Below are positions 35,734 through 63,359 of a DNA stretch of 64,000 nucleotides, in pieces. The first letter of the stretch is position 1, and every line of letters begins with the position of its first letter. A program made the position numbers and the translations under genes. The notes beneath the pieces are model-generated. The model did no database searches. It saw only the letters and a program-made list of their open reading frames with translations, and was not told the DNA's origin. Source of the DNA: an uncultured virus (IMG/VR IMGVR_UViG_3300044712_001838) (Duplodnaviria > Heunggongvirae > Uroviricota > Caudoviricetes). The stretch lies in IMG/VR virus record IMGVR_UViG_3300044712_001838. The stretch is one strand, 5' to 3'.

Positions 35734-36102
35734 TTACTTGCTGGCGACGGGTTCGACCTTGACGCGGATCTCGCCTTTCTTACCCGCGCCGAGAGCTTTG
35801 AAGCCAGCGGGTGTCAAGTCGATGATGACGCCGCGAGCGGTCGGCTTTTTGCCGGGACCGAAGTCGTTGAGGCGGACTTCGATAGTCTTGCCGTTTTCGA
35901 GGTTTGTTACCTTGATCTTTTTGCCCCATTCGCGGGAGCGCATGGCGCAAGTCAAGGCGGACTCGTCAAACTTCTCGCCGTTTGCGGTGAAGACTCCGCT
36001 GGTGCCTTCGCGCTGGCAGGACTTTGTCGTATAGTACGTTGCCAGACCTTCAGCGGCGAAAGCGGGTATGGCGAGGAAAGCGAGCAGGATGATTGTTTTC
36101 AT
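35734..36102 (-). CDS. RlpA-like double-psi beta-barrel (lytic transglycosylase family) secreted protein
   Basis: Signal peptide, GLATYY, TANGEKFD...LTCA, KVTNLENGKTIEVRLNDFGP, IIDLT. Confidence 0.88.
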   Translation of the reverse strand: MKTIILLAFLAIPAFAAEGLATYYTTKSCQREGTSGVFTANGEKFDESALTCAMRSREWGKKIKVTNLENGKTIEVRLNDFGPGKKPTARGVIIDLTPAGFKALGAGKKGEIRVKVEPVASK

Positions 36103-36130
36103 GGTATGGTAGACTGCTCCTAATGGGAAC

Positions 36131-36412
36131 CTAATGCTTTTTGCACTCAGCCCTTCTTGCGCAAATTTCCTTTGCCTTGCTGTACGCCGAGCCGCGCGGG
36201 ACGCCGTCCAGAACTGAGCAGGCGACGTAGAAAGTGCCATCGGTCCAGATGAGGCGTTCCTTCGAGACATGGTCCCAAGTTGGCGATTCCTGTTCATTGG
36301 AGAGGACGCGAACAAGGTTAAACGCCATCTTCATGGCTTGGCGATGGTTACTTACTGGAATGTTGTCGGCGACTTGTCCGTTGATTCGACCGACTTCTAC
36401 GATATGTTTCAT
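36131..36412 (-). CDS. hypothetical protein (array gene)
   Basis: Motif plus GGGAG RBS; stop inside next motif. Confidence 0.75.
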   Translation of the reverse strand: MKHIVEVGRINGQVADNIPVSNHRQAMKMAFNLVRVLSNEQESPTWDHVSKERLIWTDGTFYVACSVLDGVPRGSAYSKAKEICARRAECKKH

Positions 36413-36453
36413 GGTGTTTTCTCCCTGTTAGGTCGCCTGCTCCTAACGGAAGG

Positions 36454-36678
36454 CTAATACGGATTGCACTTGGAGGCGACTCGCGCCCCAAGGACGATGA
36501 TCTCGTATCCGAACCAGTAGCAAATGTCTCCGGCGATGAAAAAGGCTTTGCTGCGGACAGGCTTGTCGATGGTTACGTACTTGTTGAAACAGTAGTTTCC
36601 CGCGAGAATGAGCCGCCTGAACAGTGCAAGAGAGTTGTTAAAGATGAAGTTTGCCAAAAGCTCGCGGATCTTACGCAT
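36454..36678 (-). CDS. hypothetical protein (array gene)
   Basis: AGGAG RBS; stop inside next motif. Confidence 0.65.
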   Translation of the reverse strand: MRKIRELLANFIFNNSLALFRRLILAGNYCFNKYVTIDKPVRSKAFFIAGDICYWFGYEIIVLGARVASKCNPY

Positions 36679-36688
36679 GGCATTGCTC

Positions 36689-36943
36689 CTAGTTAGCGGG
36701 GAAGTCGTAGCGTGCCGGATCGTTGTCGTAGCCTTTGGGGCATATCCGGTAGGTGTCAAAATCGGCGCGCGTTGCGGGGCGCATTTTGCTCTTGTCCATT
36801 GGGACCGGAGCAGAGCCGTCTTTCCAAGTGTAAATAGAGCCGCGAATTACGGAAGTCGCGAGAATCCAAACGTCGTTCGGTAATTGGGGCAGGATGTAGC
36901 CGAAAAGGTTTTCATCGCAAACAACGAATCGGATCTTGTCCAT
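36689..36943 (-). CDS. hypothetical protein (array gene)
   Basis: Motif plus GGGAG RBS. Confidence 0.75.
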   Translation of the reverse strand: MDKIRFVVCDENLFGYILPQLPNDVWILATSVIRGSIYTWKDGSAPVPMDKSKMRPATRADFDTYRICPKGYDNDPARYDFPAN

Positions 36944-36982
36944 GATTGTCTCCCGCTAGAGTCGCCTGCTCCTAATGGCGAC

Positions 36983-37360
36983 CTAACGTATTTGCACTTT
37001 CGGGAGCGGGCTTCCCGTCGCCTGATGATAGACGATTCGCGGGTAGGCTTTGCCGGAGTTGTTGACGGCGCGAGACTGAATCTCAACCCAACCGCGCTCG
37101 ATGCCGCGCTCAACTTCGCTTGCCTCTGCTTTGGTCGCTTCGCGGATTGTCGGGACTGGTCCGGGAAAGGTTCGATGCAGCTTCAGTTCATTGGTGTCTT
37201 TGCGGAACTCGTAGCTGCCGCCGCCTGCGACAAGGACGCCGACAATAGCATGTCCGGGCTGGAATTTGGTCGGATCTTCGCTGAGTGTCATCCAGTTGGC
37301 GATGATTTCGTCGGCTGTTGTCCCAAGGGACGGCGGGACATAGGGTTTCTTTTCCGGCAT
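36983..37360 (-). CDS. hypothetical protein (array gene)
   Basis: Motif plus GGAGGG RBS; stop inside next motif. Confidence 0.75.
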   Translation of the reverse strand: MPEKKPYVPPSLGTTADEIIANWMTLSEDPTKFQPGHAIVGVLVAGGGSYEFRKDTNELKLHRTFPGPVPTIREATKAEASEVERGIERGWVEIQSRAVNNSGKAYPRIVYHQATGSPLPKVQIR

Positions 37361-37416
37361 GATTTGCCCTCCGAATCAGTCGCCTGCTCCTAATGCCGTC
37401 CTAACGGAGTTTGCAC

Positions 37417-37674
37417 TCAGTCGGCGATGAACTTGCGAGGCGCGACCGCCTTGACGGTCTTCTCGGTCTTGTTCGGGTTCTTGAGCATAACGGTCAGGCG
37501 GAACTCGATGCCGTTGCGCGTCTGATGCGCCGAAACGAATGCTCGGGCGCGCATCTTGCCCTGCGTAATGACGCCGTCTTTGCGCTCATGGGCGGGAGAG
37601 ACAACGTCAATGCAGGCGATTTCGTTGGAGCGGGTAGTCAGGACGGATTCGTCGACGACGATCTCTTGTCTCAT
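37417..37674 (-). CDS. hypothetical protein (array gene)
   Basis: GGGAG RBS. Confidence 0.65.
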   Translation of the reverse strand: MRQEIVVDESVLTTRSNEIACIDVVSPAHERKDGVITQGKMRARAFVSAHQTRNGIEFRLTVMLKNPNKTEKTVKAVAPRKFIAD

Positions 37675-37687
37675 GGTGTCAACTCCC

Positions 37688-37930: not shown

Positions 37931-37971
37931 GATGTTTCCCTCTGTCTTGCTCGCCTGCTCCTAATGCCGCC

Positions 37972-38160
37972 CTAACAGGCGGGAACAACCTTTTGGCAGG
38001 CGTCGGGCTTGACGTTGAATTTCCTGCTGCCGTCGAAGACGGTTACGGTCTTATTGGCGTTGAAGTCGCGGACCGTCGCGAGAAACGATAGTCCGGCGAA
38101 AGTCGCCATAACGAGTTGACCGTAGCGGAAGGGCTTTGCTTGCGTTTCGGGCTGATGCAT
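37972..38160 (-). CDS. hypothetical protein (array gene)
   Basis: Motif plus GGAG RBS; stop inside next motif. Confidence 0.7.
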   Translation of the reverse strand: MHQPETQAKPFRYGQLVMATFAGLSFLATVRDFNANKTVTVFDGSRKFNVKPDACQKVVPAC

Positions 38161-38476
38161 GGTAATCTCCGATGGTTGTTCTGATACTTACATAGGCTGC
38201 TCCTAATGGAAACCTAATTTCCATAGGACTGACACCGAAAAATCGGCGTTTTTCGCCCGGCGACCAGGTCACGCCCAGGTCACAGCCAGGTTCGGGGCAT
38301 GGGTTTTACGAGTGCAAGATTGATTTGGGTTTTGTTAGGAGCAGGCGACGGTCGCATGGGAACAACAGCATTCGCCTTTTTACTATTCTCGAATCTGGCT
38401 CTGGTCATTTGGAACAGCCGCGAGACACCATCTTACGGCAGAATCAAAGCGATCAGGCGGTTCAGAAAGGCAAAAC

Positions 38477-38959
38477 ATGCGGTCTAAAATCGCAATCGGC
38501 AAACTGGACGAAGTTACCGAACCGAGGACAGGGAAAAAGACAATCGTTGTCCGTGTTCCCGAAGGCACTCCCGGCAATTGGATCTCGTTTTTCGTCGGCA
38601 ATACCAACATGGTCAGAGACGAGCAGATCCATCCATCGCGGGGCGGCGGGCATGTTACCGATCCGTTCGTCCTGTGTCAGTATGACCCGCAGGATCAGTT
38701 CGCCTACATCGTCCCGCTCCCGAGTGTTTTTGTCGCCAGCGAGTTTCGTTGCACCCGCAACAAGCCGTATGTCGGCAACTGTCCGGGCGCGAAAGACCAT
38801 TCGGCGCGGCAGGGATACTACATCGTCGCCTTCAGCGCAGACGAAGCGATAAAGCAGATGGAAGCGAAGTTCCCCGACGAGCCGGAAGGCTTTACCGCGA
38901 AGTTCTGGAAATACGCGGATCGTCGTCCCGAGACGGTTCGCTACGAGCCTCTGTGCTAG
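38477..38959 (+). CDS. hypothetical protein (array gene)
   Basis: AAGG RBS, 160 aa. Confidence 0.75.
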   Translation: MRSKIAIGKLDEVTEPRTGKKTIVVRVPEGTPGNWISFFVGNTNMVRDEQIHPSRGGGHVTDPFVLCQYDPQDQFAYIVPLPSVFVASEFRCTRNKPYVGNCPGAKDHSARQGYYIVAFSADEAIKQMEAKFPDEPEGFTAKFWKYADRRPETVRYEPLC

Positions 38960-39012
38960 GCGCGTTCGGGTTCCGTTAGGAGCAGGCGACAGCATTGAAG
39001 CGAGGCATAAAC

Positions 39013-39612: not shown

Positions 39613-39671
39613 AGTGTCAAGGTTGTTAGGCTTCCATTAGGAGCAGTCGCTCATATTGGAGGGAACAAATC

Positions 39672-40061: not shown

Positions 40062-40274
40062 GGGAAAACCGATGAGCAGTCTGCAAGAGACTTTGAAATC
40101 GGTTCGCCCGAGCAATCGGTGCTTTAGCTGCGGCAAGTTACTAAACCCGAAAAAGAAGTACAGATGGCACTATGCTCCGTCGAAATCGTCTAGGACGGCA
40201 ATCGTATTCGTCGCCTTCTGTTGTCATTAGGCTTCTGTTAGGAGCAGGCGACTGTAGCATGGGAGGATAAACCC

Positions 40275-40475
40275 ATGAGCAAAGCCCTTAAACTTCTTGA
40301 CGGACTTTTGGCTGTTGGACTTGCTTCACCGCATTTTCCGCATAAGATTAGCGATGCAATTAGCATTGTCGAAGATGCTTATGCACGGCATGAATTAACA
40401 CTCCGCCAGACCGTCGCGCTGGATAAGGCGTTGCTGATTTTGGCAAAACGCCGACGAGAGTGTCAACCGTCTTAG
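40275..40475 (+). CDS. hypothetical protein (array gene)
   Basis: Motif plus GGAGG RBS; stop inside next motif. Confidence 0.7.
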   Translation: MSKALKLLDGLLAVGLASPHFPHKISDAISIVEDAYARHELTLRQTVALDKALLILAKRRRECQPS

Positions 40476-40521
40476 GCTCCCGTTAGGAGCAGGCGACTGT
40501 AGCATCTAAGGGAGATTTAAC

Positions 40522-41160
40522 ATGCGCAAAGACTGCATGAAGGGCAAAAAAGGGTTCTTACACTGTTACGCTTCCGGCGATGGTTCGCTGTCCTTCTGCT
40601 GGCAAGACGCTGAAGGCAAAGCCAGCGGCAATACGGTAACACTGGCAGAAGCGCGGCGGTTCCTGAAGCGCAAGAGCGAAAAGCATCTGCTGTACGATCA
40701 TGCGATGGTTCCTTGTAACCTTCATGGTCATGTCATTTTGGCGCATCGGGTTACTCGCCTTGACAAAGACACTCTGCGGATTCATGGCGAGGGCGAATAC
40801 TCGCACGATGGCGATTTCAAGGTCAAGATCGACGAGTCGTTACGGTTCGCCGACGGTTCATTGGGCGACCACGCGATTGCCCTGACCTTCACCTTGCCGA
40901 AATTCCCCGAGCTTGGGGAGCGCATCTGTCAGAACATCAACATCTGCGCGGCGATCCGTTTCTTCCTCAACAACGAGGAGAAGCTGACGAAGGTTTTCGC
41001 TGAGACACCCGAGCCGCCTCCAATGCCCGCCAAGACGCCCAAGCCCGCCCGCATCAAGCAAGAAGCTGCGAGGATCGCGCTAGACGCCTGCAAGCAGTTG
41101 CTCGACGGTCATATCGAAGCTGCCAAACTTTTGGCGCAGACCGCAATCGCTGGTGCTTAG
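40522..41160 (+). CDS. hypothetical protein (array gene)
   Basis: Motif plus GGGAG RBS; stop inside next motif. Confidence 0.8.
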   Translation: MRKDCMKGKKGFLHCYASGDGSLSFCWQDAEGKASGNTVTLAEARRFLKRKSEKHLLYDHAMVPCNLHGHVILAHRVTRLDKDTLRIHGEGEYSHDGDFKVKIDESLRFADGSLGDHAIALTFTLPKFPELGERICQNINICAAIRFFLNNEEKLTKVFAETPEPPPMPAKTPKPARIKQEAARIALDACKQLLDGHIEAAKLLAQTAIAGA

Positions 41161-41204
41161 GCTCCTGTTAGGAGCAGGCGACAGGGAAAAGCGAGGAAAC
41201 ACCG

Positions 41205-41594
41205 ATGAGTGCAGCATCCAGAGCCAGAGAAGCCGCCGCCCGAGAAGCGGCAAAGCGCAAACAGGCGGAACTTGAAGCCGCCGATATGCCGAATCCCGAT
41301 GAGACACCGCCGCCAGGGACTTTCTTCGCTGGCAGAAACGCCGACGGCTCTCCCAAATGGGAAGCAGATCCCGAGTTCTCCGGCTTGCTGGAACGCTATT
41401 TCAAGAACCATGCCGCCATGAAAGACACCTACGGGCTAAAGCGGCTGGCTGTTACCGAGGAAGGCGTCGAAGTTGTCCCCAATGGGCAACGTTACATGAC
41501 CGTCATTGAGGCGCGGGACATTGACCGCGCTGGCGTAATCTACCAGAACTTGCTGAGCGGCATCGCGCGTCCAGCTCCCGCCTTCGGGGGATAG
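41205..41594 (+). CDS. hypothetical protein (array gene)
   Basis: Motif plus GAGG RBS. Confidence 0.75.
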   Translation: MSAASRAREAAAREAAKRKQAELEAADMPNPDETPPPGTFFAGRNADGSPKWEADPEFSGLLERYFKNHAAMKDTYGLKRLAVTEEGVEVVPNGQRYMTVIEARDIDRAGVIYQNLLSGIARPAPAFGG

Positions 41595-41649
41595 TGTCAG
41601 TCGTCTTCGGGTTGCGTTAGGAGCAGGCGACTAGGGCAAAGGGGAAGCC

Positions 41650-41916
41650 ATGACCGTAGCCGTACATCCGCGCATTAAGAATTTTCAGTACCAGATCAGG
41701 GAATTTACCGACTGGATTGCTTGCCGCAACGCAAGCTGCGAAGCGATGGATCAGGGCTTTTTCCGGCAAGGCGTCAAATGCGGTTTCGTAATGATAAACC
41801 GGATCGGCGCGACGCTGTTTTACGTCAAAGGCGTCGCTACCCAAGCCGACTTGGATTTCTGGACCAAAGGGACGCCATACCCGAAAACGCCGACCAACGA
41901 GTGCAAGACTCGTTAG
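41650..41916 (+). CDS. hypothetical protein (array gene)
   Basis: Motif plus AGGGG RBS; stop inside next motif. Confidence 0.75.
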   Translation: MTVAVHPRIKNFQYQIREFTDWIACRNASCEAMDQGFFRQGVKCGFVMINRIGATLFYVKGVATQADLDFWTKGTPYPKTPTNECKTR

Positions 41917-41958
41917 GTTCCCATTAGGAGCAGGCGACTGTAGTACGGAGACAACATC

Positions 41959-42327: not shown

Positions 42328-42491
42328 AGTACAAATCGACAAACGGCAACGTCTTGACCATTCGGTTCAAGGGCAACAAGGCGTACATCCGTTACGAGGG
42401 CGCGGCGCGACCAATGATTCGTTCCGCAGCTTATATCCGCTCCCTGATCGGCAAAGGCATTTTTCGCGCCATTAAGTGCAACACTCATTAG
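42324..42491 (+). CDS. small basic protein (55 aa, not in ORF track)
   Basis: ATGA coupling; stop inside next motif. Confidence 0.6.
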   Translation: MKYKSTNGNVLTIRFKGNKAYIRYEGAARPMIRSAAYIRSLIGKGIFRAIKCNTH

Positions 42492-42535
42492 GGTTGCATT
42501 AGGAGCAGTCGCCTGTTGTATAGGAGGTACGAAAG

Positions 42536-43018
42536 ATGCGTCCGACAACGAACGAAGAAATGAAAGCGCGGGAAAAGAAATTCAACGGGCTTCAAATCAA
42601 TCCGTTGCACTTTACGGAAGTCAAGAGCCTGTCCGACTTGTTTGTTTCGATTGTTCCGTACGACGCCAATAGCCCGATGAAGCATACGTACGGGAACGAT
42701 CCGGCGACGGACTTGGATGGGGTTTATTGGTGTCAAGTTACGGATGCGACCAATCGCCGCAAGAATTACTCGCTGCATGTTTGCCCGACTGCGGAGATCC
42801 GCGAGTACATGTCGCGCAACATGCTGTACGGGAACGGCATCTACTTCCAAATCGTCCTGCGCGCTGGCAAGGCGAACGAACCCGAGACGGCTTTGGTAAC
42901 GGCGACCTATGACCAAATCATCGGGAGCCATTGGCTCGCGGAGATGACACGCAACGACATTCCGACCGAGCGCGAGATCCGCATTCGCGACCTTCGCGCC
43001 AAGAAGGCGATCGCTTAG
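42536..43018 (+). CDS. hypothetical protein (array gene)
   Basis: Motif plus AGGAGG RBS; stop inside next motif. Confidence 0.8.
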   Translation: MRPTTNEEMKAREKKFNGLQINPLHFTEVKSLSDLFVSIVPYDANSPMKHTYGNDPATDLDGVYWCQVTDATNRRKNYSLHVCPTAEIREYMSRNMLYGNGIYFQIVLRAGKANEPETALVTATYDQIIGSHWLAEMTRNDIPTEREIRIRDLRAKKAIA

Positions 43019-43046
43019 GCTTCTGTTAGGAGCAAAGGAGCGCAGC

Positions 43047-43302
43047 ACCAATGTTCTAGGACAGCCATCGGCGGCAGCCTCCCTTATGTAGCCGAGGGAC
43101 ATATCGGCTGGAACACAACGCACCCAAGTAGCAGATGAGCGAACGGGGCAAAACCCTCAGATATCCAGACGGAGAAACGAGTATGGACTGGCCGTAGCGT
43201 AGCACCCAAAAACTGCGAGCGACTAGGAACCGACCACAGAGAGACAAACGAAGATGAGAACCCGATAGGGAGCGGCTTGAGAAACCGACTCCCTCTTTTT
43301 TT
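43047..43302 (+). ncRNA. candidate structured ncRNA (~255 nt)
   Basis: Starts at the motif's inferred +1, no RBS-led ORF, internal hairpins, ends in an AGGGAG-CGG/CCG-CTCCCT hairpin plus T7. Confidence 0.6.
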
Positions 43303-43569
43303 GCCTTTCCGCAAATCATGACACCGGAAAAAGTCGACATCCCCGGCATCACCAGGCGATCCAGGGCATCATCGCCCGGTCAGTCGACACGGAAATACGC
43401 CGACCCCAATTATTAAGCCGTTGCCTGCACGGGGTTTGCATAAACGCCGACGACGGGCTGGATGTCATCCAGGATCGCCCAGGAGCATCCAGGACATCAC
43501 CAGGCATCAAAGCGGGCTTTTTCAAGTGCAAGGTTGCTTAGGTTTCCGTTAGGAGCAGTCGCCTGCTAC

Positions 43570-43785
43570 ATGGATGGATCTACAACAAACTTCTCAAGCT
43601 GTATGCAATGCAAGGACGAAGTCAGCGGCAAAACAGGCGACTTCATTCATGCAGGCGATAGAAAGGCTATCAGTCCAGTCTTTGACCATTGGGACGAGCT
43701 TTGCCGCTGGATGAATGCGAACGGCTGGAAATCCGCCGAACACGTTGGCGACAAGTACGTTCCGTTCCGCGTAGTCCGCGCATAA
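43570..43785 (+). CDS. hypothetical protein (leaderless array gene)
   Basis: ATG 21 nt after second TTAGG. Confidence 0.7.
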   Translation: MDGSTTNFSSCMQCKDEVSGKTGDFIHAGDRKAISPVFDHWDELCRWMNANGWKSAEHVGDKYVPFRVVRA

Positions 43786-43798: not shown

Positions 43799-44188
43799 AT
43801 GAAGCCAGTCCGCCGAAAGATTGCAAAATGGGAGCGCGGGCAAGGGAACGCGGGTTACTTTTATGAGTACCGTTACACTCTTGTCTGCGGTCATACTCAA
43901 AGCGAATACTCAAACCGCAATCCCCCGCCAAAGACGACTCAATGTAACGTCTGTACGCATACCGCCAACGGCATTGACGACCTTGCAAACGGAAAGTACG
44001 ATTACATTCCCGTAGCGGAGCGCGTTCCGCTCCATGCGAGCAAGGCGGAGGGATTCCTCCAGATTGGCGACCATTTCAACGCTGCCGCCCATGCGCGCGA
44101 AGTCTTGAAATTGGGCGCAGAAGGCTGGATCGGGACGCCGCCTTACGTCCGGGCGCAAGAAGTGCTCAAAGCATTAGGTATCCAGTAG
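43799..44188 (+). CDS. hypothetical protein with LxCGH...CxxC
   Basis: TLVCGH ... CNVC; stop inside next motif. Confidence 0.7.
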   Translation: MKPVRRKIAKWERGQGNAGYFYEYRYTLVCGHTQSEYSNRNPPPKTTQCNVCTHTANGIDDLANGKYDYIPVAERVPLHASKAEGFLQIGDHFNAAAHAREVLKLGAEGWIGTPPYVRAQEVLKALGIQ

Positions 44189-44218
44189 GAGCAGGCGACG
44201 GTACAAAGGGAGAACCTC

Positions 44219-44458: not shown

Positions 44459-44522
44459 CGCTCGAAGTGTCAGTCGTCTTCGGGTTGCGTTAGGAGCAGG
44501 CGACGGTGTTGGGAGATCCAAG

Positions 44523-44987: not shown

Positions 44988-45446
44988 ATGATTTTCAAAC
45001 CGACAACAAAGCGCAAGCTGTCTCGCGGGCAACGCATGGGACTTGAGGAATTGCGCGGGCAAGAGGTTGTTTTCATTCGCAATCTCGCCAACGGCATGAT
45101 TCGCGTCCGGTTCCCGTCTGACTTCGAGATGGATTGCTACCCCGAGGAACTCGTTGACACTCCCGCGCAGAAGATCGCCCTCATCCCCTTCGACGAGTAT
45201 ACCGAGCGCGCGGGGACGTTGCTGGTTGACGAAGACGGCGGCATGGTCGCATGGTTGACCATCAAGGACAACCTTCGCATCGAAATCAGTTGGCAGAAAG
45301 ACAACTATCCGTCGCTCCGCGTTACGATCATGGAGAAGACAGAAAAGAAGCTCGCTGCCCATATCCGCAAGAACTGCAAAGGCTGGTACGCCAAGAAGCT
45401 CAACGTCGAAGGCGTCAAGCTGAAGCATGACAGCCGCATCGCCTGA
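44988..45446 (+). CDS. hypothetical protein (array gene)
   Basis: GGAG RBS. Confidence 0.75.
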   Translation: MIFKPTTKRKLSRGQRMGLEELRGQEVVFIRNLANGMIRVRFPSDFEMDCYPEELVDTPAQKIALIPFDEYTERAGTLLVDEDGGMVAWLTIKDNLRIEISWQKDNYPSLRVTIMEKTEKKLAAHIRKNCKGWYAKKLNVEGVKLKHDSRIA

Positions 45447-45504
45447 GTGCAACATCGCTTAGGCTTCCGTTAGGAGCAGGCGACTGTAGCAGGAGGAACA
45501 TCAT

Positions 45505-46896: not shown

Positions 46897-46942
46897 GCTC
46901 CCATTAGGAGCAGTCGAAAAACGCCGAGGGGGAGAAACGCCG

Positions 46943-51427: not shown

Positions 51428-51472
51428 AGTGTCAACGGGCTTAGGTGTCCGTTAGGAGCAGGCGACTTTACC

Positions 51473-52062: not shown

Positions 52063-52109
52063 GCTTCTGTTAGGAGCAGTCGCCTCCAACAGGCTAAGGA
52101 GATTCAAGC

Positions 52110-52940: not shown

Positions 52941-53308
52941 CACCAACAGGCTACATGATCCTTCTCGACGGCAAGAGCGTCGGCGGAGCCTCCAGACCGG
53001 AGACTCCGTCTGTCGTTTTGACCCACCTCGCAAAGAGGATGGTCGAACGCTGCGACGCCCTCGACCAGATCCAGCCGTACCAGGACGCCGACATCTGGCG
53101 ATGGTTCGCCCGAGTGTCAAGTCTCTTAGGCTCCCGTTAGGAGCAGGCGATAGTTACATGGAAACGCCGACGAAGCCGATTATTGTCTATCATGGGGATG
53201 GAGACTGCTTGGAGATTACTCCAGAAGAAGCGTCATTTTTCCATTTGAAACATGAGGACAAAATCTATGACGACGCTTTAGAGGCTCTGCGAAAGAGGAG
53301 AAACGCCG

Positions 53309-53527
53309 ATGGCTAAATTCAAAGTTCCAGTTGAGAAGACGACGCGGGTTAATGGCGTCATTGAAGTCGAAGCCAAGGACGCGCAAGACGCCGTCAAGAA
53401 GGTCCGTGCCGGAATGAACGACGGCAGCATCAAGCCGTCTGATGCCCTTTGGGATGACACTCCGCAGTCGGACGACTGTTTCGACGACGAGAGCTTCAAG
53501 ACCTACGGCGGCGCCGAAGAAGTTTAG
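53309..53527 (+). CDS. DpnD/PcfM-like small protein
   Basis: KFKVPVEKTT...IEVEAKDAQDAVKKV pattern; GAGGAG RBS. Confidence 0.55.
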   Translation: MAKFKVPVEKTTRVNGVIEVEAKDAQDAVKKVRAGMNDGSIKPSDALWDDTPQSDDCFDDESFKTYGGAEEV

Positions 53528-53568
53528 GCTCCCGTTAGGAGCAGGCGACTGTACCAGAGGAGAGCCAA

Positions 53569-53898
53569 ATGATTCTGGACATCGTTCAACCGAAAGTTTC
53601 CAACGAGAGCGCGAATGCCGCCTTCAGGCATGTTATTGCTGGCAGCGTCATTGTCGCCATCCCATGGGATACAACGCATACGGCATACTACTACGAGGGC
53701 GGTATCTACGACCGCCAGCCAAGTACGCCGCCGACGCGACAGCAGCGGGAAGAGTACGCCAAGATTGCAGCGGGGCGCGCAAAGGAACGTTACCCGACCG
53801 TCGCCCGCTTGGTGCTGCCGAATGACAGCATGGACGGAATGGAGGTTGTCGGTTACGTTGACACCGACGCCCGCTATGAAGTCCGGTTCATTGTTTAG
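53569..53898 (+). CDS. hypothetical protein (array gene)
   Basis: Motif plus GAGGAG RBS; stop inside next motif. Confidence 0.75.
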   Translation: MILDIVQPKVSNESANAAFRHVIAGSVIVAIPWDTTHTAYYYEGGIYDRQPSTPPTRQQREEYAKIAAGRAKERYPTVARLVLPNDSMDGMEVVGYVDTDARYEVRFIV

Positions 53899-53926
53899 GC
53901 TCCCATTAGGAGCAGTCGAAAAAGGC

Positions 53927-54376
53927 ATGAATACGAACTCGCTCTACCTCACCCTGATCCAGCGCAAAGGTCCAGTCGAGATTTCCGAAATCGACGCCCT
54001 CTTGACACAAGCTATCCTCAATGGCGTCGAAACCAACGACAAGGAAGAACCCGAGGAACAGCAAGGGGACGCAATCCTTGCCTTGATTGAAGTCTGGACC
54101 GTCTTACACCCGACCTTCAAGACCGTTACCAATTCGCCTGACAAATGGGAAGCCTGCGACAAGCATTTGGCTTTCTACCAGCAGGCGGCAAAAGAGCTTG
54201 ACTTCGACCCCGAGCAGACTTGGGACGCGCCTGAATGGCTGGAGAAGAAGGGCATTCCCTTCCCTGAGCATCTCTTGCAGTTGAGTGCCGCAGCTATGGC
54301 AAAGAAGCAAGCTGACGAAAACCGCCAGTTTGCCCAATACATGCAAGACCACCTCGCAGCCCATCAACCGTCTTAG
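53927..54376 (+). CDS. hypothetical protein (leaderless array gene)
   Basis: ATG at +21; stop inside next motif. Confidence 0.75.
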   Translation: MNTNSLYLTLIQRKGPVEISEIDALLTQAILNGVETNDKEEPEEQQGDAILALIEVWTVLHPTFKTVTNSPDKWEACDKHLAFYQQAAKELDFDPEQTWDAPEWLEKKGIPFPEHLLQLSAAAMAKKQADENRQFAQYMQDHLAAHQPS

Positions 54377-54404
54377 GCTCCCGTTAGGAGCAGTCTACTA
54401 GATC

Positions 54405-54719
54405 ATGAAACACAAAATGGTCAAATTCAAGGTCCGGATTCTGGAACACTGGTCGCCAGTGTACGAAGGCGAAGGCTATGATCGCCATGTACTCGCCTGG
54501 GTAAAGCAAGACCCGCCAAAGGTTACGGAGTTCGAGCACCAATCAGCCTGCATCAACGGACAAGTCCTCTATCGCGGCAACTTCTATACCCCCGTTGAAG
54601 GCGTCGTTACCATCGAGTACAAGGCGATGCCCATCGTCGAGCCGCCTCCCCGCTTCGATAAAAGCATGTTGCCCCTGTTGAGTGTCATGGCTCTGTTCGG
54701 GGCAACTGCCCACCGTTAG
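54405..54719 (+). CDS. hypothetical protein (leaderless array gene)
   Basis: ATG at +21; stop inside next motif. Confidence 0.75.
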   Translation: MKHKMVKFKVRILEHWSPVYEGEGYDRHVLAWVKQDPPKVTEFEHQSACINGQVLYRGNFYTPVEGVVTIEYKAMPIVEPPPRFDKSMLPLLSVMALFGATAHR

Positions 54720-55014
54720 GCTTCTGTTAGGAGCAGCACCCATGAGTAGCTACATCCCTTTTCCGGTCGGGACCGTCCGTGGTCCTTACTTTACATCTCA
54801 TGGCGGTGAAACCCATGTTCAGTTCTTGGTTAATGGCACTGGAGGATGGGTTCCGTTCAGCGGCGATTCCAGACGAGAGCGGGAAATTAGCGAGAGAGCG
54901 CATCGCTACGCAGAGCAGTTCTCCGTCGAGGTTCCGTTAGGGCATTCTTAGGAGCAGGCGACTGCTTCAGGAAACGAATTTCTGACCTTGTTTCTTTGCG
55001 GCGCGGAGTTAAAA

Positions 55015-55275: not shown

Positions 55276-55709
55276 ACTGGAACGATCGCAGGGTCAAAAA
55301 CTTTGCCCCACCCGAATATGCCGCCCTTTGGGGAAGCAACTCCGAAGACGGGGCACTTTTCTACAACTACGCGGTTGAGAAAAACAACCCCGATTTCTTG
55401 CGGAAGTTCATCCCCGCGATTGAGCGCATGATCGCCAACGTCGTCCAGACACGCGCAACTTCTCCCGAGGTTTTCGGTCGCTACGACGTTGACGATTTGA
55501 AGCTGCTTTTGGAGTACGTCCGGCGCGAAGCCAACATCGTCGTCATCCGGCGCGTTGTTGCCGAGCGGCTGCAAAACGTCTACAACGTCGCCATCGAGCC
55601 GCACGAGAACGATGAACTGTCGCCCAGCGACCAAGCTGAAGTTGACGAGTTCCGGCAGGCTTGGAAGGGCATCGAGCAGAAGCTCTTGGACGAGTGCAAG
55701 ATCGCTTAG
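55272..55709 (+). CDS. hypothetical protein (array gene)
   Basis: GGAGG RBS, ATGA coupling; stop inside next motif. Confidence 0.75.
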   Translation: MNWNDRRVKNFAPPEYAALWGSNSEDGALFYNYAVEKNNPDFLRKFIPAIERMIANVVQTRATSPEVFGRYDVDDLKLLLEYVRREANIVVIRRVVAERLQNVYNVAIEPHENDELSPSDQAEVDEFRQAWKGIEQKLLDECKIA

Positions 55710-55759
55710 GCTTTCATTAGGAGCAGTCGCCTGTAGTAACGAAAGGAGGGCAAACAACC

Positions 55760-56516: not shown

Positions 56517-56676
56517 CGTCGCCTGATTGACCAGGCTGCGCCGCCCGGCAGCCGTTCGAGCGAGCAAGTGTCATGAGAGAAATGACACTAACGCCGACCG
56601 GGTTGACTCCGGCGTGGTCCGCCTTGACTCCGCCAAAAACGCCGTTAGGCTTGCGTTAGGAGCAGGCGGATAAAGC

Positions 56677-57024
56677 ATGGATACGAAAAACCACCTTTGG
56701 GAGCAAGAGTTTGGGGCGGAATACGCTATCCCCCAAGAGATCCTTGACCTCCATGCAGCCGACAAACTGTTTGATTACTCTTGGCATAATGACATTCGAC
56801 CTTCGTTCGGTCGCAACAACGAAAAGGGAGAGGTTCGCCTTTGGGTCGATCATCCCGACCCGAAAGAGCGCGAGGTAGGACCAGACGGAAAACGCTTCTC
56901 TGTCGTCTTCTATCCGGATGAGGGCGGCGCGGATACGGCGATTGACACCGACCGAGTCATCGAGGCAATCGAAGTCTTCAGAGTCGAAATCCTGCGCCGA
57001 CTCGGCATCGATTGGAACTCTTAG
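56677..57024 (+). CDS. hypothetical protein (leaderless array gene)
   Basis: ATG at +21; DYSWHND..PSF; stop inside next motif. Confidence 0.75.
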   Translation: MDTKNHLWEQEFGAEYAIPQEILDLHAADKLFDYSWHNDIRPSFGRNNEKGEVRLWVDHPDPKEREVGPDGKRFSVVFYPDEGGADTAIDTDRVIEAIEVFRVEILRRLGIDWNS

Positions 57025-57052
57025 GCTTCTGTTAGGAGCAGGCGACTCTACC

Positions 57053-57271
57053 ATGAGCAAACCAACCGCAAAACCCGACTTTGAAGTTAACGACATGGGG
57101 ACAGTCGTTTCCATCACCCCCATGAACAAGGACGCCCAAAAGCATCTGATGGGCAACGTCAAGACGGAATCATGGCAATGGATGGGACCGTCGCTGTGCG
57201 TCGACCATCGCTATGCCGAACCAATCATCGCCAACGTCCAAGAAGAAGGCTTCACAGTTTCGCAAGGTTAG
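57053..57271 (+). CDS. hypothetical protein (leaderless array gene)
   Basis: ATG at +21. Confidence 0.75.
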   Translation: MSKPTAKPDFEVNDMGTVVSITPMNKDAQKHLMGNVKTESWQWMGPSLCVDHRYAEPIIANVQEEGFTVSQG

Positions 57272-57280: not shown

Positions 57281-57514
57281 ATGAAAACCAGACAGATCGA
57301 AATGCTCCGGTGTTGGGGCGACCATACATGGGATACCGACTTTACGGAAATCCCCGCTAACACTCCCGAAGGCGACATCGACCGCGTCGCCATCGACGGG
57401 CATACGTCCGAGATTTTCAAGGCAAACCCCAAACGGGACCTTGTGCAGACAACGGTGTACCATATCCCCGAGATCGAAGAGGAAGAGCCTGTCGGCTTGC
57501 TTGGAGCGAATTAG
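57281..57514 (+). CDS. hypothetical protein
   Basis: AGGGG RBS; stop inside next motif. Confidence 0.7.
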   Translation: MKTRQIEMLRCWGDHTWDTDFTEIPANTPEGDIDRVAIDGHTSEIFKANPKRDLVQTTVYHIPEIEEEEPVGLLGAN

Positions 57515-57555
57515 GCTCCCGTTAGGAGCAGGCGCGTAAAGCAGGAGGAAGAACG

Positions 57556-58754: not shown

Positions 58755-58832
58755 AACGCCGACCAAGAGTGCAACGCCTATTAGGACTCCGTTAGGAGCA
58801 GGCGACTCTGTTGGGACAAGGAGACATAAGAC

Positions 58833-59312
58833 ATGTGCTGCTGCGGAAAACCGACAATGAATGGCGAACGTGGGTACAAATGGCAACCCGACGATGAGCC
58901 AAGCATCTATCCCATCAACCCGCCGGCGGTTGCGGAAGGCGATGTCGTGCTCTACGACGAGCCCGGACGCTGCGGGGGGCTTGACGCTCATAGCCATCAT
59001 TACCGCGTCGTCAAGCACTACAGTAGCATTTTTCTCTACGTCCAGCATGGCGGGGGGAAGGAAGAGTTCCGCCTCAGTACGACGCCTGCCTTCATGGCAA
59101 TGCTTGCCGCGCTTGACACCAATGCCCGCTACTGGATGCTGAGTCTCATCTATCACGCCCATTCAGACGGCGAGCGCAAGGGAAGCGGCGAAACGCAAGA
59201 TCGCTGGTCGCGGGCGGCTGCTGAAAAGCGAATCAAGACCCGCAAGTACCGCAACAGCAACGATGTCAAAGTCTGGATCGAAGATCCGCCCGTCGCCTGC
59301 AAGGCGGTTTAG
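58833..59312 (+). CDS. hypothetical protein (array gene)
   Basis: Motif plus AAGGAG RBS; stop inside next motif. Confidence 0.75.
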   Translation: MCCCGKPTMNGERGYKWQPDDEPSIYPINPPAVAEGDVVLYDEPGRCGGLDAHSHHYRVVKHYSSIFLYVQHGGGKEEFRLSTTPAFMAMLAALDTNARYWMLSLIYHAHSDGERKGSGETQDRWSRAAAEKRIKTRKYRNSNDVKVWIEDPPVACKAV

Positions 59313-59340
59313 GACTCCGTTAGGAGCAGGCGACAGTAGC

Positions 59341-59567
59341 GAAGGAGGAAACAGCATGCGTTACATGGGTAACGCGCTGTAATGTTTTCCGCCCCGCAAG
59401 GGGTTCTTCTCCAGAAGCCTAGTGCTGAGTCGAGAAGAGTAGGACAGACGGATTACGGGGACGGATCGGAATCTTCCGGCAATCGCAGACCCCCTCTATC
59501 CCCGTCGCCTGCGGACGCATGACGAATTAGCGGCTCTACCCTTGGGGCAAACTCAAGGAGAGCAGAC
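59341..59567 (+). ncRNA. structured 5' leader with 8-codon micro-ORF
   Basis: Starts at inferred +1; GGAGG-led MRYMGNAL* (59356-59382) inside a GCGTTAC/GTAACGC hairpin; further stems TCTTCTC/GAGAAGA, ACGGGGA/TCCCCGT, CCTTG/CAAGG. Confidence 0.5.
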
Positions 59568-60543
59568 ATGAAGCGCAAATGGCAGTTCTTTGTTAACACT
59601 TGGATCGGCGCCAATACGTACGGCATTCGGTTCAATGGTGCCCGCCGCAACGGCAAAGGTCGCTGGCTCACAGGCGACGAATTGCCCGAGAAGGTTCGCA
59701 AGTTCTTCTGCATCGAAAAGCAGACATCGTCTTGGACCATGCCCGACTACAAGACGCTGCAAGAGTTGCGGGAGAAGGCGCATAACTGTACCTTCCAGAA
59801 GCGCAACCCCTGCTACGGATGGTGCGCGATTGACGAACCGAAGTTGACACTCCCTCCCAAGATCGAAGTTGACCTTGCTAAGCTGCGGGAAACCCTTCGC
59901 GAGATGAACGAGGGGCGCAACATGAAACGCTACGGTAAGGAATGGGTGGGCAGATTCTTTTGCGGCGAAAGAGAATTTCTGCTGACGCCCGCGACGAAAA
60001 AATGGGTCAAGACCCATCGTTGCACTTGCGGGAAGCGGCATCGGGTAACGTGGAAAGAAGAAGACCGCTGCTATGGCGGATGCTTCGATATCCTCTCATT
60101 CGGTTGGAAGGACGCAGACCTTGACCCTGAAGGTTGCACCGGAATCGACAAGCTTCTCGATATCCAGGGAAAGCGCGTCGCCTTCCAGGTCAGTGGTCAC
60201 AAAGTCCTCTGCGATCCGACGTACGAGTTCGAGTACCAGTTCTTCGTACTCCGAGGTTGCTCACTCCATCGTCTGCGACTGCGGGTGCGACGGCAGTTGG
60301 GAAGGCGACGACTGGTGTCTATCCTTTACTGAGATCCTGATGGTTCCGGTCGTTCACAAGAACAACGTCGTTGACTACGAGAAGACGGCAAAACGCATCA
60401 TTGCTGCAAGTTGTAAGGCAATCAAGCCTTACGAGCAGATGTGGAGCGACGCTTCGGAGAATATGAACAACCTGTATAAAGAACTTTATGAGAAGTATAA
60501 GAAACTTTCTGACGAAGGCAAGTTGCCCGAGACTGAGGATTAG
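59568..60543 (+). CDS. hypothetical protein apparently split by a +1 frameshift near 60240
   Basis: Frame 59568-60332 turns Arg-rich after EYQF; overlapping frame continues SYSEVAHSIVCDCGC and stops inside the next motif. Confidence 0.6.
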
Positions 60544-60585
60544 GGTTCTATTAGGAGCAGGCGACCATATCGAAAGGGGAACGAC

Positions 60586-61461: not shown

Positions 61462-61486
61462 TCTCATCTTCATAAGTCCAAGTGCG

Positions 61487-61512
61487 AAGCCGCCCTCGAA
61501 GGCGGCTTTTTT
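61487..61512 (+). terminator. intrinsic terminator
   Basis: AAGCCGCC-N6-GGCGGCTT plus T-run. Confidence 0.8.
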
Positions 61513-61749
61513 GTTAAAAAAAGTGGTGAGATGAGTGGTGAGATCCTGGTGACCGGGTGGTGATCTCATCTTCTCCGGTGTCATGTTGATTGTAGCACCG
61601 GAACAACCTGATAGGCTGCCGGGCGGCGCAGTTCTACATAGTCGACCGAGCAGGCGGCGTCCGGCATTAGGCTTTTATTAGGAGCAGGCGACCTTTCCGT
61701 GCGCAATGGAGCGCAAAGAGATTTCAACCCCATACGGAGGAAAGCCAAG

Positions 61750-62073
61750 ATGTCCAGCACGAAGAAGCCCGCCGCAAAGAAGTCCAAGGTCGTCGAGAGT
61801 CTGGAACTCTCTCAGCCCCAGCAGGAGTTGCTCGCCCAGGCTGGCTCGGGCGCCAAGCTCGAAGCTTGGAAGGGCGAGGACAAGAAGTTCATCGTCTTCT
61901 GCGGGGCGCGCAAGTTCGAGCACGGCACGTTCAACCAGATTGCCAAGAAGGGTCTGGTCGAGAAGGCGCAGGTTCGCGCGCCGAAGCGCGGTTGGACCTA
62001 CCGCCTGTCCGCCAAGGGCGCGCAGATCGTCTCCAAGTACATCAACGCGGTTCCGTCGCCTGTAAACGCCTAG
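61750..62073 (+). CDS. basic winged-helix-like protein
   Basis: GGAGG RBS; TFNQIAKKGLVEK...YRLSAKG. Confidence 0.65.
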   Translation: MSSTKKPAAKKSKVVESLELSQPQQELLAQAGSGAKLEAWKGEDKKFIVFCGARKFEHGTFNQIAKKGLVEKAQVRAPKRGWTYRLSAKGAQIVSKYINAVPSPVNA

Positions 62074-62091
62074 CGGCGTCGGGGGCGGTCA

Positions 62092-62131
62092 GAGGGGGCG
62101 GCTCGCGGGAGCCGCTCCCTCATTCTTCTTT
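62092..62131 (+). terminator. intrinsic terminator candidate
   Basis: GAGGGGGCGGCTC/GAGCCGCTCCCTC then ATTCTTCTTT. Confidence 0.55.
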
Positions 62132-62143
62132 GGGAGACAAGCT

Positions 62144-62470
62144 ATGAAATGCCCCAAATGCGGTTGCGAAATTGACACCGAGGACGAGCACAAGTACGAG
62201 CCGTCCAAGGACCAAATTGCGGACTTGCCGCCTTCGATCAAACAGCGATTCCTTCCCTACGACTCATGTACGCCTGCCGGAAAGCCGTACAAGGCTCCGC
62301 CGCGCTTCCTTCAGTACTCAGACGACCATCTCAACGATTGGAACTTTACGCATCCGATCAAAGCCGAAGAGGACGGCTCCGTCTGGATGGTTCGGACATA
62401 CAGCCCTACCTTCAACTCCAAGCGAAACTGCGGCGGCTACGACGTTATCTACTGCCGCAAAACCAAGTAA
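62144..62470 (+). CDS. hypothetical protein
   Basis: GGGAG RBS; MKCPKCG. Confidence 0.7.
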   Translation: MKCPKCGCEIDTEDEHKYEPSKDQIADLPPSIKQRFLPYDSCTPAGKPYKAPPRFLQYSDDHLNDWNFTHPIKAEEDGSVWMVRTYSPTFNSKRNCGGYDVIYCRKTK

Positions 62471-62517
62471 GTGTCAAAAACGCCGTTAGGACTCTGTTAG
62501 GAGCAGGCGAAGAAACC

Positions 62518-62724
62518 ATGAACAGAAACGCGAACCCTCAACTGCTGAATCTCTTGCGCATGGGTTGCAAGGTTGAATTCCCTACCGGAGCATGGCTTCG
62601 GGGAGACAAGGGCTACATCAAAGTCGGCAGCGAGCAACGCGGAGAACTTGGTGCTTGGTCTCTTGACCGCGAGGGGCTTCGCAACGCCATGTCCGACAAG
62701 GACTTGTGGGCAGGTAACGATTGA
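62518..62724 (+). CDS. hypothetical protein (leaderless array gene)
   Basis: ATG at +21. Confidence 0.7.
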   Translation: MNRNANPQLLNLLRMGCKVEFPTGAWLRGDKGYIKVGSEQRGELGAWSLDREGLRNAMSDKDLWAGND

Positions 62725-62731
62725 GGAAGCC

Positions 62732-62932
62732 ATGAAAAACCCGAATTGCGACAACATCCATTGCACCAAAGCCAACGGGGAAGTCCGCTTGCTGCCGACC
62801 GGAGGCGACGGCAATATGATCGTCTGCCGTTCCTGTTACGAGCACGAAATGGCGTTCCGCCGCTCGTTCAGCAAGAGAGGGGTTAAACCCGATCTCCCGA
62901 GTTGGGAGTCGCTCAAAGTCTACGAAGGGTAA
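62732..62932 (+). CDS. small Cys-containing protein
   Basis: GAGG RBS; NPNCD..HC...CRSC. Confidence 0.7.
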   Translation: MKNPNCDNIHCTKANGEVRLLPTGGDGNMIVCRSCYEHEMAFRRSFSKRGVKPDLPSWESLKVYEG

Positions 62933-62978
62933 CAGTGCAACACTTATTAGGCTTCCGTTAGGAGCAGACGAGATAAAC

Positions 62979-63359
62979 ATGATCAAGGTTCAATACTCGC
63001 TGGCAGACCTGTCGTCTGCTGGACCGCAGATTGAGAATGCATGCTTGAAGTCGGGCATGAGTATTGAAGAGGTCCCTGGCGGTTTGATTGCCCTACCAGG
63101 GAAAGGAACGAGTCAGTTTCCGCTGGTGCAAGGGGAGAGATGGGTCAATGTGTCAACTTCCATCGAATCCTACCTCTTCCTTGCCCGCTACTTGGCAATC
63201 ATGTCCGTTCTCGACGTCGCCTGCAAGCTTGGCGTCCTTGAGGACATCCTTGACGAAGGGGGGTTCTGGCGAAAAAGGGATCTGGACGCGCTGGTCGCTT
63301 TCAAAGAGACCTTGCAAAGTGTTCCAGATCCGCGAGAAACACGCCCGTTCATGTCGTAG
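62979..63359 (+). CDS. hypothetical protein (leaderless array gene)
   Basis: ATG at +21. Confidence 0.7.
   Translation: MIKVQYSLADLSSAGPQIENACLKSGMSIEEVPGGLIALPGKGTSQFPLVQGERWVNVSTSIESYLFLARYLAIMSVLDVACKLGVLEDILDEGGFWRKRDLDALVAFKETLQSVPDPRETRPFMS

Follow-up and report, generated by a model that had tools for sequence, protein, structure and literature searches.

In the 64,000-nucleotide (nt) stretch of DNA analysed here, referred to as the window, which comes from the uncultured virus IMGVR_UViG_3300044712_001838 and belongs to a phage contig of at least 98.7 kb from rhizosphere (soil) metagenomes, an element of about 45 bases occurs in 54 copies between 33.4 and 63 kb, in a fixed register with the genes behind it. 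We infer, with a probability of about three in four, that this element is a phage-specific promoter with a fixed start at a step from C to a purine, yielding leaderless or minimal-leader mRNAs, and that it would serve one temporal gene class of a large phage. Transcription would begin at a purine designated +1, which in 16 units is the A of an ATG, giving a leaderless mRNA; in 32 units a Shine-Dalgarno sequence (SD) would begin within the first 7 nt of the transcript, followed by an ATG at +12 to +26. The regularity had been noticed in a first-pass annotation; as an observation it is confirmed, and its interpretation as +1 and as leaderless starts is supported as far as sequence alone allows.

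Anatomy of the element and its register with gene starts

The element has the form [AGTGCAA/AGTGTCA]-N6-TTAGG-N6-TTAGGAGCAGGCGA-N7. With up to three mismatches allowed, the window contains 60 matches to the 14-mer TTAGGAGCAGGCGA, where 5.24 would be expected (100 shuffles gave at most 12). Fifty-three of these matches lie within 33.4-63 kb, all in the direction of the downstream gene; the remaining seven (1947-31775) have no upstream TTAGG and occur at chance level. The count of 54 uses the core [TG]TAGGAGCA[GA] within this module and excludes a stray copy at 20283(-). Copies are named by their predicted +1, that is, the left coordinate on the minus strand and the right coordinate on the plus strand. 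Thirteen (+1 33412-38185) are on the minus and 41 (+1 38356-62979) on the plus strand, each co-oriented with the gene behind it, and they precede 54 groups of small genes. Between the two divergent sets lies a gap of 80 bp (38231-38310), in which three CCAGGTCAC-like repeats of 11 bp stand in tandem, accompanied by the inverted repeat CGAAAAA...TTTTTCG; this may be a regulator site for both divergent units.

Conservation was determined per position for the 54 copies aligned on the predicted +1. Positions -20 to -13 showed no variation (54/54), and the block is bordered by T-21 (52/54), G-12 (53/54), C-10 (52/54), G-9 (48/54) and A-8 (41/54), with T in 14 and G in 36 copies at -11. The first TTAGG (-32 to -28) is conserved at 91-100%, and the 6-mer between the two TTAGG repeats is pyrimidine-rich (cTtCCg). 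The extent given in the first-pass annotation (TTAGG at -32 to -28, block at -21 to -8) is arithmetically correct, but the element is longer: a third box, AGTGCAA or AGTGTCA (-45 to -39), begins exactly at -45 in 21 of the 54 copies, and weaker signals follow the block (C-7 35/54, T-4 28/54, A-3 33/54, C-1 38/54, with a pyrimidine at -1 in 49/54). The +1 base is a purine in 53 copies (A 40, G 13), with the C of copy 46925 as the sole non-purine, and a pyrimidine-purine step at -1/+1 is present in 48 of 54. From +2 to +10 the sequence is that of the SD or the codons, without conservation of the initially transcribed region. The spacing of 11 bp, roughly one helical turn, between the two TTAGG words and the constant register of the -45 box make a pattern that suits recognition of duplex DNA.

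Relative to this alignment, the 54 copies fall into five classes: leaderless, with the ATG at +1 (16); SD-led, with the ATG at +12 to +26 and an SD starting within 7 nt of +1 (32); long leader (54969, with ATG 55015, and 61699, with an SD and ATG 61750); SD followed by a mini open reading frame (ORF) of 5 or 8 codons (33412 and 59341); and copies with a degenerate -12 to -8 box and no gene start in register (43047 and 54748). Copy 61699 has a GTG at +1, but the SD and ATG 61750, with a 51-nt leader, are the likelier start. In all 16 cases listed in the first-pass annotation the ATG lies exactly 21 nt downstream of the first T in the second TTAGG, is preceded by C and is the predicted start codon, so that the motif-to-ATG distance is identical throughout. 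Gene starts are accordingly bimodal, at offset 0 or 11-25, with none at +2 to +11. Seventeen of the 54 copies have an ATG at offset 0, namely the 16 starts and a three-codon ATG at 40259, compared to 0.86 expected per offset; the binomial probability of at least 16 in 54 is 2e-16.

The same boundary is visible in copies without a leaderless start. A pyrimidine-purine step at -1/+1 was observed in 31 of the 37 non-leaderless copies, compared to a background of 0.24, and among SD-like 4-mers none begin at -4 to -1, 13 begin at +1, 18 at +2 and only 4 beyond +9; the three examples quoted earlier (45491, 57543 and 59341) are as described. The seven bases after GCGA are thus kept free of SD words, and the transcribed signals begin at one fixed base. 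By a crude word search, the SD-ATG gap is 5-10 nt in 30 of the 32 SD-led copies, and the two exceptions, at 12 and 13 nt, carry a GGGAG closer to the ATG. No ribosome-binding site lies between motif and ATG in the leaderless set, and the GGAG inside the motif sits 14 nt from +1, against the usual 5-10 nt; a role as ribosome-binding site for these genes is therefore unlikely. The bimodal starts, the pyrimidine-purine step and the SD boundary are all as predicted if the base in question is the transcription start.

The leaderless ORFs were scored with a codon model trained on 29 other ORFs of the window, and for 14 of the 16 frame 0 alone appeared coding. In 13 of the 16, none of the first five alternative starts listed is both in frame and SD-led; such alternatives were present at codon 42 of 49488, codon 18 of 53158 and codon 36 of 62979. 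The gene at 36102(-) encodes a DPBB_1 domain protein (E 5e-12), the N-terminus of which (MKTIILLAFLAIPAFA) resembles a signal peptide beginning at the +1 ATG. A comparison of leaderless genes with SD-led copies of the same family yielded nothing, as no paralogues were found among the motif-led genes. Leaderless expression of most of the 16 genes is considered likely. Eleven of the 16 units cluster at 48183-57053 (9 kb, in the middle of the rightward module), and just one of the 13 leftward units is leaderless.

Proposed transcription from the element and alternative readings

In support of a promoter, two copies follow strong intrinsic terminators at a distance of 140-190 nt, and no sigma-70-like site intervenes: 33412, behind the terminator at 33575-33592(-), and 61699, whose unit (61699-62073) is enclosed by terminators at 61486-61509 and 62092-62121. 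The divergent first copies (38185(-) and 38356(+)) have nothing promoter-like upstream and no sigma-70-like site in the 80-bp gap that separates them.

The claim of the first-pass annotation that the block is unlike host housekeeping promoters is borne out. Neither a TTGACA-like -35 nor a TAnnnT -10 is present, positions -12 to -7 of the element read GGCGAC, and scans place no sigma-70-like site on the copies. Canonical promoters are found elsewhere in the window: the pattern TTGAC[AT]-N16-18-TAnnnT was matched seven times on the plus strand of 1-33.4 kb, which is the gene strand (6924, 11525, 18549, 21598, 23395, 26047 and 26872), and never on the minus strand, with 0.49 expected from mononucleotide shuffles. 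Another match, at 63406, comes after the final motif copy, ahead of the gene of a helix-turn-helix protein; the shuffle test covered 1-33.4 kb, and the four matches in the right half lie outside it. At least five of the left-module promoters lie just before start codons. Two of them put an ATG (11559 and 26906) 6 nt after the -10 hexamer, so the same phage has a leaderless design with ordinary promoters too; at 6924, 18549 and 23395 an SD follows a few bases after the hexamer, and 21598 and 26047 are less clear. Evidently the host enzyme would read these canonical promoters, and the TTAGG element would not be one of them. An identity of 83% over 41 nt was found between the promoters at 18541-18581 and 23387-23427.

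The same 5' ends could also arise by RNA processing, if long transcripts from few ordinary promoters were cut by a sequence-specific endoribonuclease 7 nt after ...GCGA. This reading predicts the same start-codon geometry and SD boundary, leaderless ends included, and is in line with the small number of terminators between units. It is nevertheless very unlikely. RNAalifold found no consensus pairs in the 54 copies, and a small CTCC/GGAG hairpin (pyrimidine 6-mer with GGAGC) forms in some copies only, about 1.8 kcal/mol below shuffles. The 11-bp TTAGG tandem and the -45 box at its fixed distance look like duplex DNA recognition, the divergent first copies and the copies behind terminators have no detectable upstream promoter for a precursor, and a pyrimidine-purine step is the usual signature of transcription initiation.

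Much of the module is strongly compacted, and this bears on a second alternative. The stop codon of the preceding gene was scored wherever the upstream coding frame was readable (39 of the 54 junctions). At 23 of these the stop is the TAG inside the first TTAGG (-31 to -29), at nine it lies at -50 to -46, just ahead of the -45 box, at three it is the TAG of the second TTAGG (-20), and at the remaining four it lies at -75, -55 or -40 (two). The promoter would thus be packed against the preceding gene, whose stop very often is the TAG of the first TTAGG. A translational element, in which the AGGAG block acts as a ribosome standby or reinitiation site after this TAG, 28 nt before +1, and serves an ATG 14 nt further on, would find support in these 23 junctions. 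It would also recall the start-associated sequence (SAS) repeats of Cluster K mycobacteriophages, with which the block has TAGGAGC in common and which are described in PMC3203893 as asymmetric repeats with TAGGAGC in their consensus GGGATAGGAGCCC, present in one orientation in the non-structural half of the genome, tied to gene starts and sometimes containing the upstream stop codon. According to the same source, however, SAS are 13 bp long, number 11-19 copies and sit 3-7 bp from the start codon, in the position of a ribosome-binding site, whereas the block described here stops 7 nt short of a boundary, formed by the ATG or, in 32 copies, by a separate SD. Those 32 copies are each equipped with an SD at 5-10 nt from the ATG, and it is to the SD boundary, not to the ATG, that the element holds a constant distance; the 14-nt gap is outside the SD spacing of this genome, and operon-internal genes lack the element and mostly have ordinary SDs. 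Moreover, a stop at -31 is as frequent at leaderless junctions (7 of 11 scorable; the set included 61699, which was unscorable) as at the others (16 of 28), an equality that speaks for packing and counts against termination-reinitiation. A translational role of this kind is accordingly given a low probability.

A third possibility is an operator array, in which the block binds a phage repressor or regulator over weak promoters and does not define the start site. The sites are asymmetric, numerous and in one orientation relative to transcription, as are the stoperators of Cluster A phages in the account of PMC3203893, and their conservation peaks at -21 to -13, where sigma factors read no sequence. 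For a pure operator the spacing to the SD boundary or ATG could vary freely, but it is exact in 48 of 54 copies, and no other promoter-like element is present at the copies, which have GGCGAC at -12 to -7 and no site placed by the sigma-70 scans. We therefore hold a pure operator array to be improbable; a regulator that also binds the block would be compatible with a promoter.

Some copies may move as cassettes. Between -24 and +18 (through ATGAA), 36425(-) and 50327(+) do not differ, and their coding flanks are unrelated (cassettes at 36414-36475(-) and 50277-50345(+)); 41638 and 44511 have the same -45 to -7 sequence including the TTCGG variant, and 33885, 35082 and 37943 have common gcaagac/AGAGG leaders; families with a shared N7 and leader were seen as well.

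A number of observations weigh against a promoter with leaderless transcripts. Two of the 16 leaderless ORFs, 38356 (43 aa) and 49112 (51 aa), are ambiguous, with no clear coding signal. The motif contains AGGAG, which could possibly act on RNA, and the identity of copies could be maintained in part by recombination, of which the match between 36425 and 50327 is a possible sign. Intrinsic terminators are not enriched overall (22 compared to 25.4 expected and 35 compared to 26.7 in two scans), so that most units would be read through. Set beside extracytoplasmic function (ECF) sigma promoters, T-11 is found in only 14 copies against the G-12 T C-10 of sigma-E-like sites, and the invariant -21 to -13 block falls into the sigma spacer, so that this comparison accounts for the conservation only in part. 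Searches of the 64-kb window of the contig of at least 98.7 kb (Pfam at E up to 1, PHROGs and NCBIfam) detected no sigma factor, polymerase or clear activator; the largest ORF of the window (543 aa) is the CCA-adding enzyme, and there was no RNA_pol match. The sequence was located in two DNA runs (rhizosphere metagenome) and in no listed RNA run.

No related genome carrying the motif was found in the collections searched. The exact motif had no match in viral contigs and one chance match, in eukaryotic-looking sequence, in metagenome contigs. The bare 14-mer, too short a pattern, gave single matches in the 80 loci listed, out of at least 120, in genome contigs, with no multi-copy locus among those listed, and a looser 15-base pattern gave 33 single matches in viral contigs, none extending into the motif. 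No match was obtained by blastn of 8 kb against phage records, a search for related loci with four proteins returned no relative, tblastn with four conserved proteins produced scattered matches in unrelated phages, and a 276-aa protein matched only itself among 5.8 billion proteins. In the literature library searched, the motif string was found only in primers and barcodes, with no relevant context.

Feature list, non-coding intervals and neighbouring genes

The copies and the terminators discussed above are collected in Table 1.

Table 1 Copies of the repeated element, a proposed promoter, and associated terminators, with strand, predicted +1 and the gene start that follows each copy.
Feature	Position	Strand	Predicted +1	Start and remarks
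Promoter copy	33412..33457	-	33412	SD and 5-codon mini-ORF, then ~680 nt non-coding; downstream of terminator 33575-33592(-)
Promoter copy	33885..33930	-	33885	SD-led, ATG +18
Promoter copy	34090..34135	-	34090	-45 box; SD-led, ATG +12
Promoter copy	34683..34728	-	34683	SD-led, ATG +19
Promoter copy	35082..35127	-	35082	SD-led, ATG +15
Promoter copy	35366..35411	-	35366	-45 box; SD-led, ATG +17
Promoter copy	35688..35733	-	35688	-45 box; SD-led, ATG +17
Promoter copy	36102..36147	-	36102	-45 box; leaderless (DPBB_1 protein)
Promoter copy	36425..36470	-	36425	SD-led, ATG +14
Promoter copy	36954..36999	-	36954	SD-led, ATG +12
Promoter copy	37372..37417	-	37372	-45 box; SD-led, ATG +13
Promoter copy	37943..37988	-	37943	SD-led, ATG +14
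First leftward promoter copy	38185..38230	-	38185	SD-led, ATG +26
First rightward promoter copy	38311..38356	+	38356	-45 box; leaderless (43 aa)
Promoter copy	38952..38997	+	38997	SD-led, ATG +17
Promoter copy	39613..39658	+	39658	-45 box; SD-led, ATG +15
Promoter copy	40214..40259	+	40259	ATG at +1 opens 3 codons only; SD-led start +17
Promoter copy	40459..40504	+	40504	-45 box; SD-led, ATG +19
Promoter copy	41144..41189	+	41189	SD-led, ATG +17
Promoter copy	41593..41638	+	41638	TTCGG variant; -45 box; SD-led, ATG +13
Promoter copy	41900..41945	+	41945	-45 box; SD-led, ATG +15
Promoter copy	42475..42520	+	42520	-45 box; SD-led, ATG +17
Degenerate copy	43002..43047	+	43047	-12 to -8 AAGGA; no gene start; ~500 nt without ORF after it
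Promoter copy	43525..43570	+	43570	-45 box; leaderless
Promoter copy	44161..44206	+	44206	GTAGG variant; SD-led, ATG +14
Promoter copy	44466..44511	+	44511	TTCGG variant; SD-led, ATG +13
Promoter copy	45446..45491	+	45491	-45 box; SD-led, ATG +15
Promoter copy	46234..46279	+	46279	GTAGG; one base shorter between repeats; SD-led, ATG +16
Promoter copy	46880..46925	+	46925	+1 is C; SD-led, ATG +19
Promoter copy	47393..47438	+	47438	SD-led, ATG +12
Promoter copy	48138..48183	+	48183	Leaderless
Promoter copy	49067..49112	+	49112	Leaderless (51 aa)
Promoter copy	49443..49488	+	49488	Leaderless
Promoter copy	50282..50327	+	50327	-45 box; SD-led, ATG +14
Promoter copy	50590..50635	+	50635	Leaderless
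Promoter copy	50909..50954	+	50954	Leaderless
Promoter copy	51428..51473	+	51473	-45 box; leaderless
Promoter copy	52046..52091	+	52091	SD-led, ATG +20
Promoter copy	53113..53158	+	53158	-45 box; leaderless
Promoter copy	53511..53556	+	53556	SD-led, ATG +14
Promoter copy	53882..53927	+	53927	Leaderless
Promoter copy	54360..54405	+	54405	Leaderless
Degenerate copy	54703..54748	+	54748	-11 to -8 CACC; no clear gene start
Promoter copy	54924..54969	+	54969	Long leader; SD-led ATG 55015 (+47)
Promoter copy	55693..55738	+	55738	-45 box; SD-led, ATG +23
Promoter copy	56632..56677	+	56677	Leaderless
Promoter copy	57008..57053	+	57053	Leaderless
Promoter copy	57498..57543	+	57543	SD-led, ATG +14
Promoter copy	58768..58813	+	58813	-45 box; SD-led, ATG +21
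Promoter copy	59296..59341	+	59341	SD and 8-codon mini-ORF overlapping (TAATG) 46-aa ORF
Promoter copy	60527..60572	+	60572	SD-led, ATG +15
Promoter copy	61654..61699	+	61699	Between two strong terminators; GTG at +1, ATG 61750 likelier
Promoter copy	62473..62518	+	62518	Leaderless
Last promoter copy	62934..62979	+	62979	-45 box; leaderless
Intrinsic terminator	61486..61518	+		9-bp stem and T run; ~180 nt upstream of copy 61699
Intrinsic terminator	62092..62131	+		13-bp stem; closes the 61699 unit
Intrinsic terminator	33565..33592	-		7 G-C pairs; upstream of copy 33412

Two intervals next to copies of the element are devoid of convincing genes. Where the left (plus-strand) module and the leftward motif module converge, about 680 nt (32730-33400) are non-coding and carry three direct repeats of about 45 nt (32756, 32878 and 32992; spacing 122 and 114 nt) together with short CTCTGGTACTCT-like repeats; the leftmost motif promoter (+1 33412) points into this interval from behind its terminator, and the interval could be a replication origin or a non-coding RNA. 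After the degenerate copy at 43047, some 500 nt (43047-43560) contain no convincing ORF on either strand, representing either a dead promoter with a spacer or a non-coding RNA. Rfam returned no matches, in this interval or anywhere in the window.

Two units have an unusual organization. At 59341-59522 the SD-led eight-codon mini-ORF encodes MRYMGNAL, and its stop overlaps the ATG of the 46-aa ORF, an arrangement resembling a leader peptide. The monocistronic unit between the two strong terminators (61486-62131) has as its product a lysine-rich protein of 107 aa (61750-62073), which matched no family and possibly binds DNA.

The window as a whole is phage-like, and most of the 68 motif-module proteins scanned have no family. 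PHROG matches at E up to 0.01, largely to families without a known function, were obtained for 14 of the 68, and the motif-module neighbourhood has two significant Pfam matches, both to cell-wall enzymes (DPBB and M23). The left module encodes a CCA-adding enzyme (2853-4484), PspA (623-1399), radical SAM enzymes, including two radical SAM/SPASM genes (16277-18552), a lipase and, at 9395-10255, a metallo-beta-lactamase-fold hydrolase matching the Pfam family Anti-Pycsar Apyc1 (E 1.4e-31), which is a candidate counter-defence gene. Split CoaBC-like genes (6957-8932) lie nearby. Furthermore, four tandem paralogues of about 140 aa with 26-42% identity and no family match (27914-29861) and long acidic (Glu/Asp) low-complexity coding repeats (1640-1905 and 2245-2340) were observed.

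Comparison with known promoters and repeats

Three promoter types were rejected as templates for the element. Read as a sigma-70 promoter, GTGCAA-N17-TTAGGA, it has a second hexamer without the A2 and T6 of a -10 and a -45 box in only 21 of 54 copies; for sigma-54 the spacing is wrong; and an archaeal TATA promoter was set aside in view of the bacterial cell-wall enzymes (M23, DPBB) and the class II CCA-adding enzyme among the genes.

Single-subunit polymerases of the T7 type read a contiguous duplex block, and their promoters are conserved through +1 to +6 with G at +1. The long contiguous block just upstream of a fixed start and the TA step at -4/-3 are alike in the element, but its block lies 4 bp further upstream, its +1 is mostly A (40/54, G 13/54), its -1 is a pyrimidine and the initially transcribed region is unconserved. 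There are also 54 copies in 30 kb, and no gene for such a polymerase is present in the 64-kb window.

PeSL (promoter-early stem-loop) cassettes of T4-type phages carry a host sigma-70-type early promoter. As described in PMC4122927, they place a conserved repeat before many small, mostly uncharacterised genes in a variable region, as is the case here, and the repeat of this phage may move with its leader, judged in this single genome from the identity of 36425 and 50327 between unrelated flanks; PeSLs are composite terminator/promoter sequences. The element described here has no consensus stem-loop and no sigma-70 match, and it overlaps the preceding stop codon.

T4 middle promoters keep the sigma-70 -10 (TAnnnT), in place of which the element has GGCGAC. 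They share with it a phage-specific upstream box on many promoters of one temporal class, the MotA box, which replaces the -35 together with AsiA (PMC7403470).

In its dimensions the element fits ECF (group IV) sigma promoters, in which the -35 box lies 25-28 nt from +1. By translation geometry, TTAGG ends 27 nt before +1, with 16 nt to (G/T)CGAC and 6 nt from there to +1; sigma-E promoters of E. coli have 26/27 nt between -35 and +1, a 16-nt spacer and a 5/6-nt discriminator (PMC1312014), and their -10 is G-12 T C-10, C-10 being the flipped base (PMC7598289). TTAGG and G(G/T)C thus stand at the -35 and -10 positions, with G-12 in 53, C-10 in 52 and T-11 in only 14 of 54 copies, and the high conservation is usual for alternative sigma promoters. 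Differences concern the boxes themselves (TTAGG versus GGAACTT, GCGAC versus TCAAA) and the spacer, little constrained in ECF promoters and here invariant at -21 to -13, where it repeats the -35 word 11 bp on.

The host housekeeping holoenzyme would probably not read the element, and a phage-supplied specificity factor would be needed. The ECF-like distances, the pyrimidine-purine start and the hairpin-plus-T terminators favour a multisubunit enzyme, presumably the host core polymerase, with a phage sigma-like factor or activator; a phage polymerase recognising the contiguous -21 to -8 duplex would be the second choice, and the former receives roughly twice the share of the promoter probability given to the latter. 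We also entertain, as a tentative and rather doubtful proposal, a recognition system not yet described, in which a phage factor or polymerase tracking one face of the 45 bp duplex could set the start to the base, and in which the 16 leaderless genes could form a separately controlled translational class, favoured for example when the phage alters host initiation. Bearing on this are the strongest constraint at -21 to -13, where sigma factors are blind, the second TTAGG one helical turn after the first and the fixed -45 box.

If the start site is right, the window offers a clean natural set of 54 near-identical promoters, the main difference between their transcripts being the lack of a leader (16) or the presence of a minimal SD leader (32). 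This would amount to a built-in comparison of leaderless and SD-led messages in competition during infection. Being long, highly specific and, it seems, orthogonal to sigma-70 promoters, the promoter may serve as a genetic part once its factor is found, and it illustrates the degree of phage regulatory compaction, with the promoter of one gene supplying the stop codon of the previous one. Known leaderless phage and bacterial mRNAs likewise have the ATG at the predicted 5' end, without an SD and with ATG as the start codon, here in 16 of 16 cases; most of them depend on a host-type -10 hexamer 6-7 nt before the ATG, as at the two left-module promoters, in contrast to the private promoter proposed here. 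Phage-specific promoters are established and phage transcripts are described as "often leaderless" (PMC5312081 for the latter), so the value of the system is that of a well-defined example and not of a new principle, and its more novel point lies in what reads the invariant -21 to -13 block.

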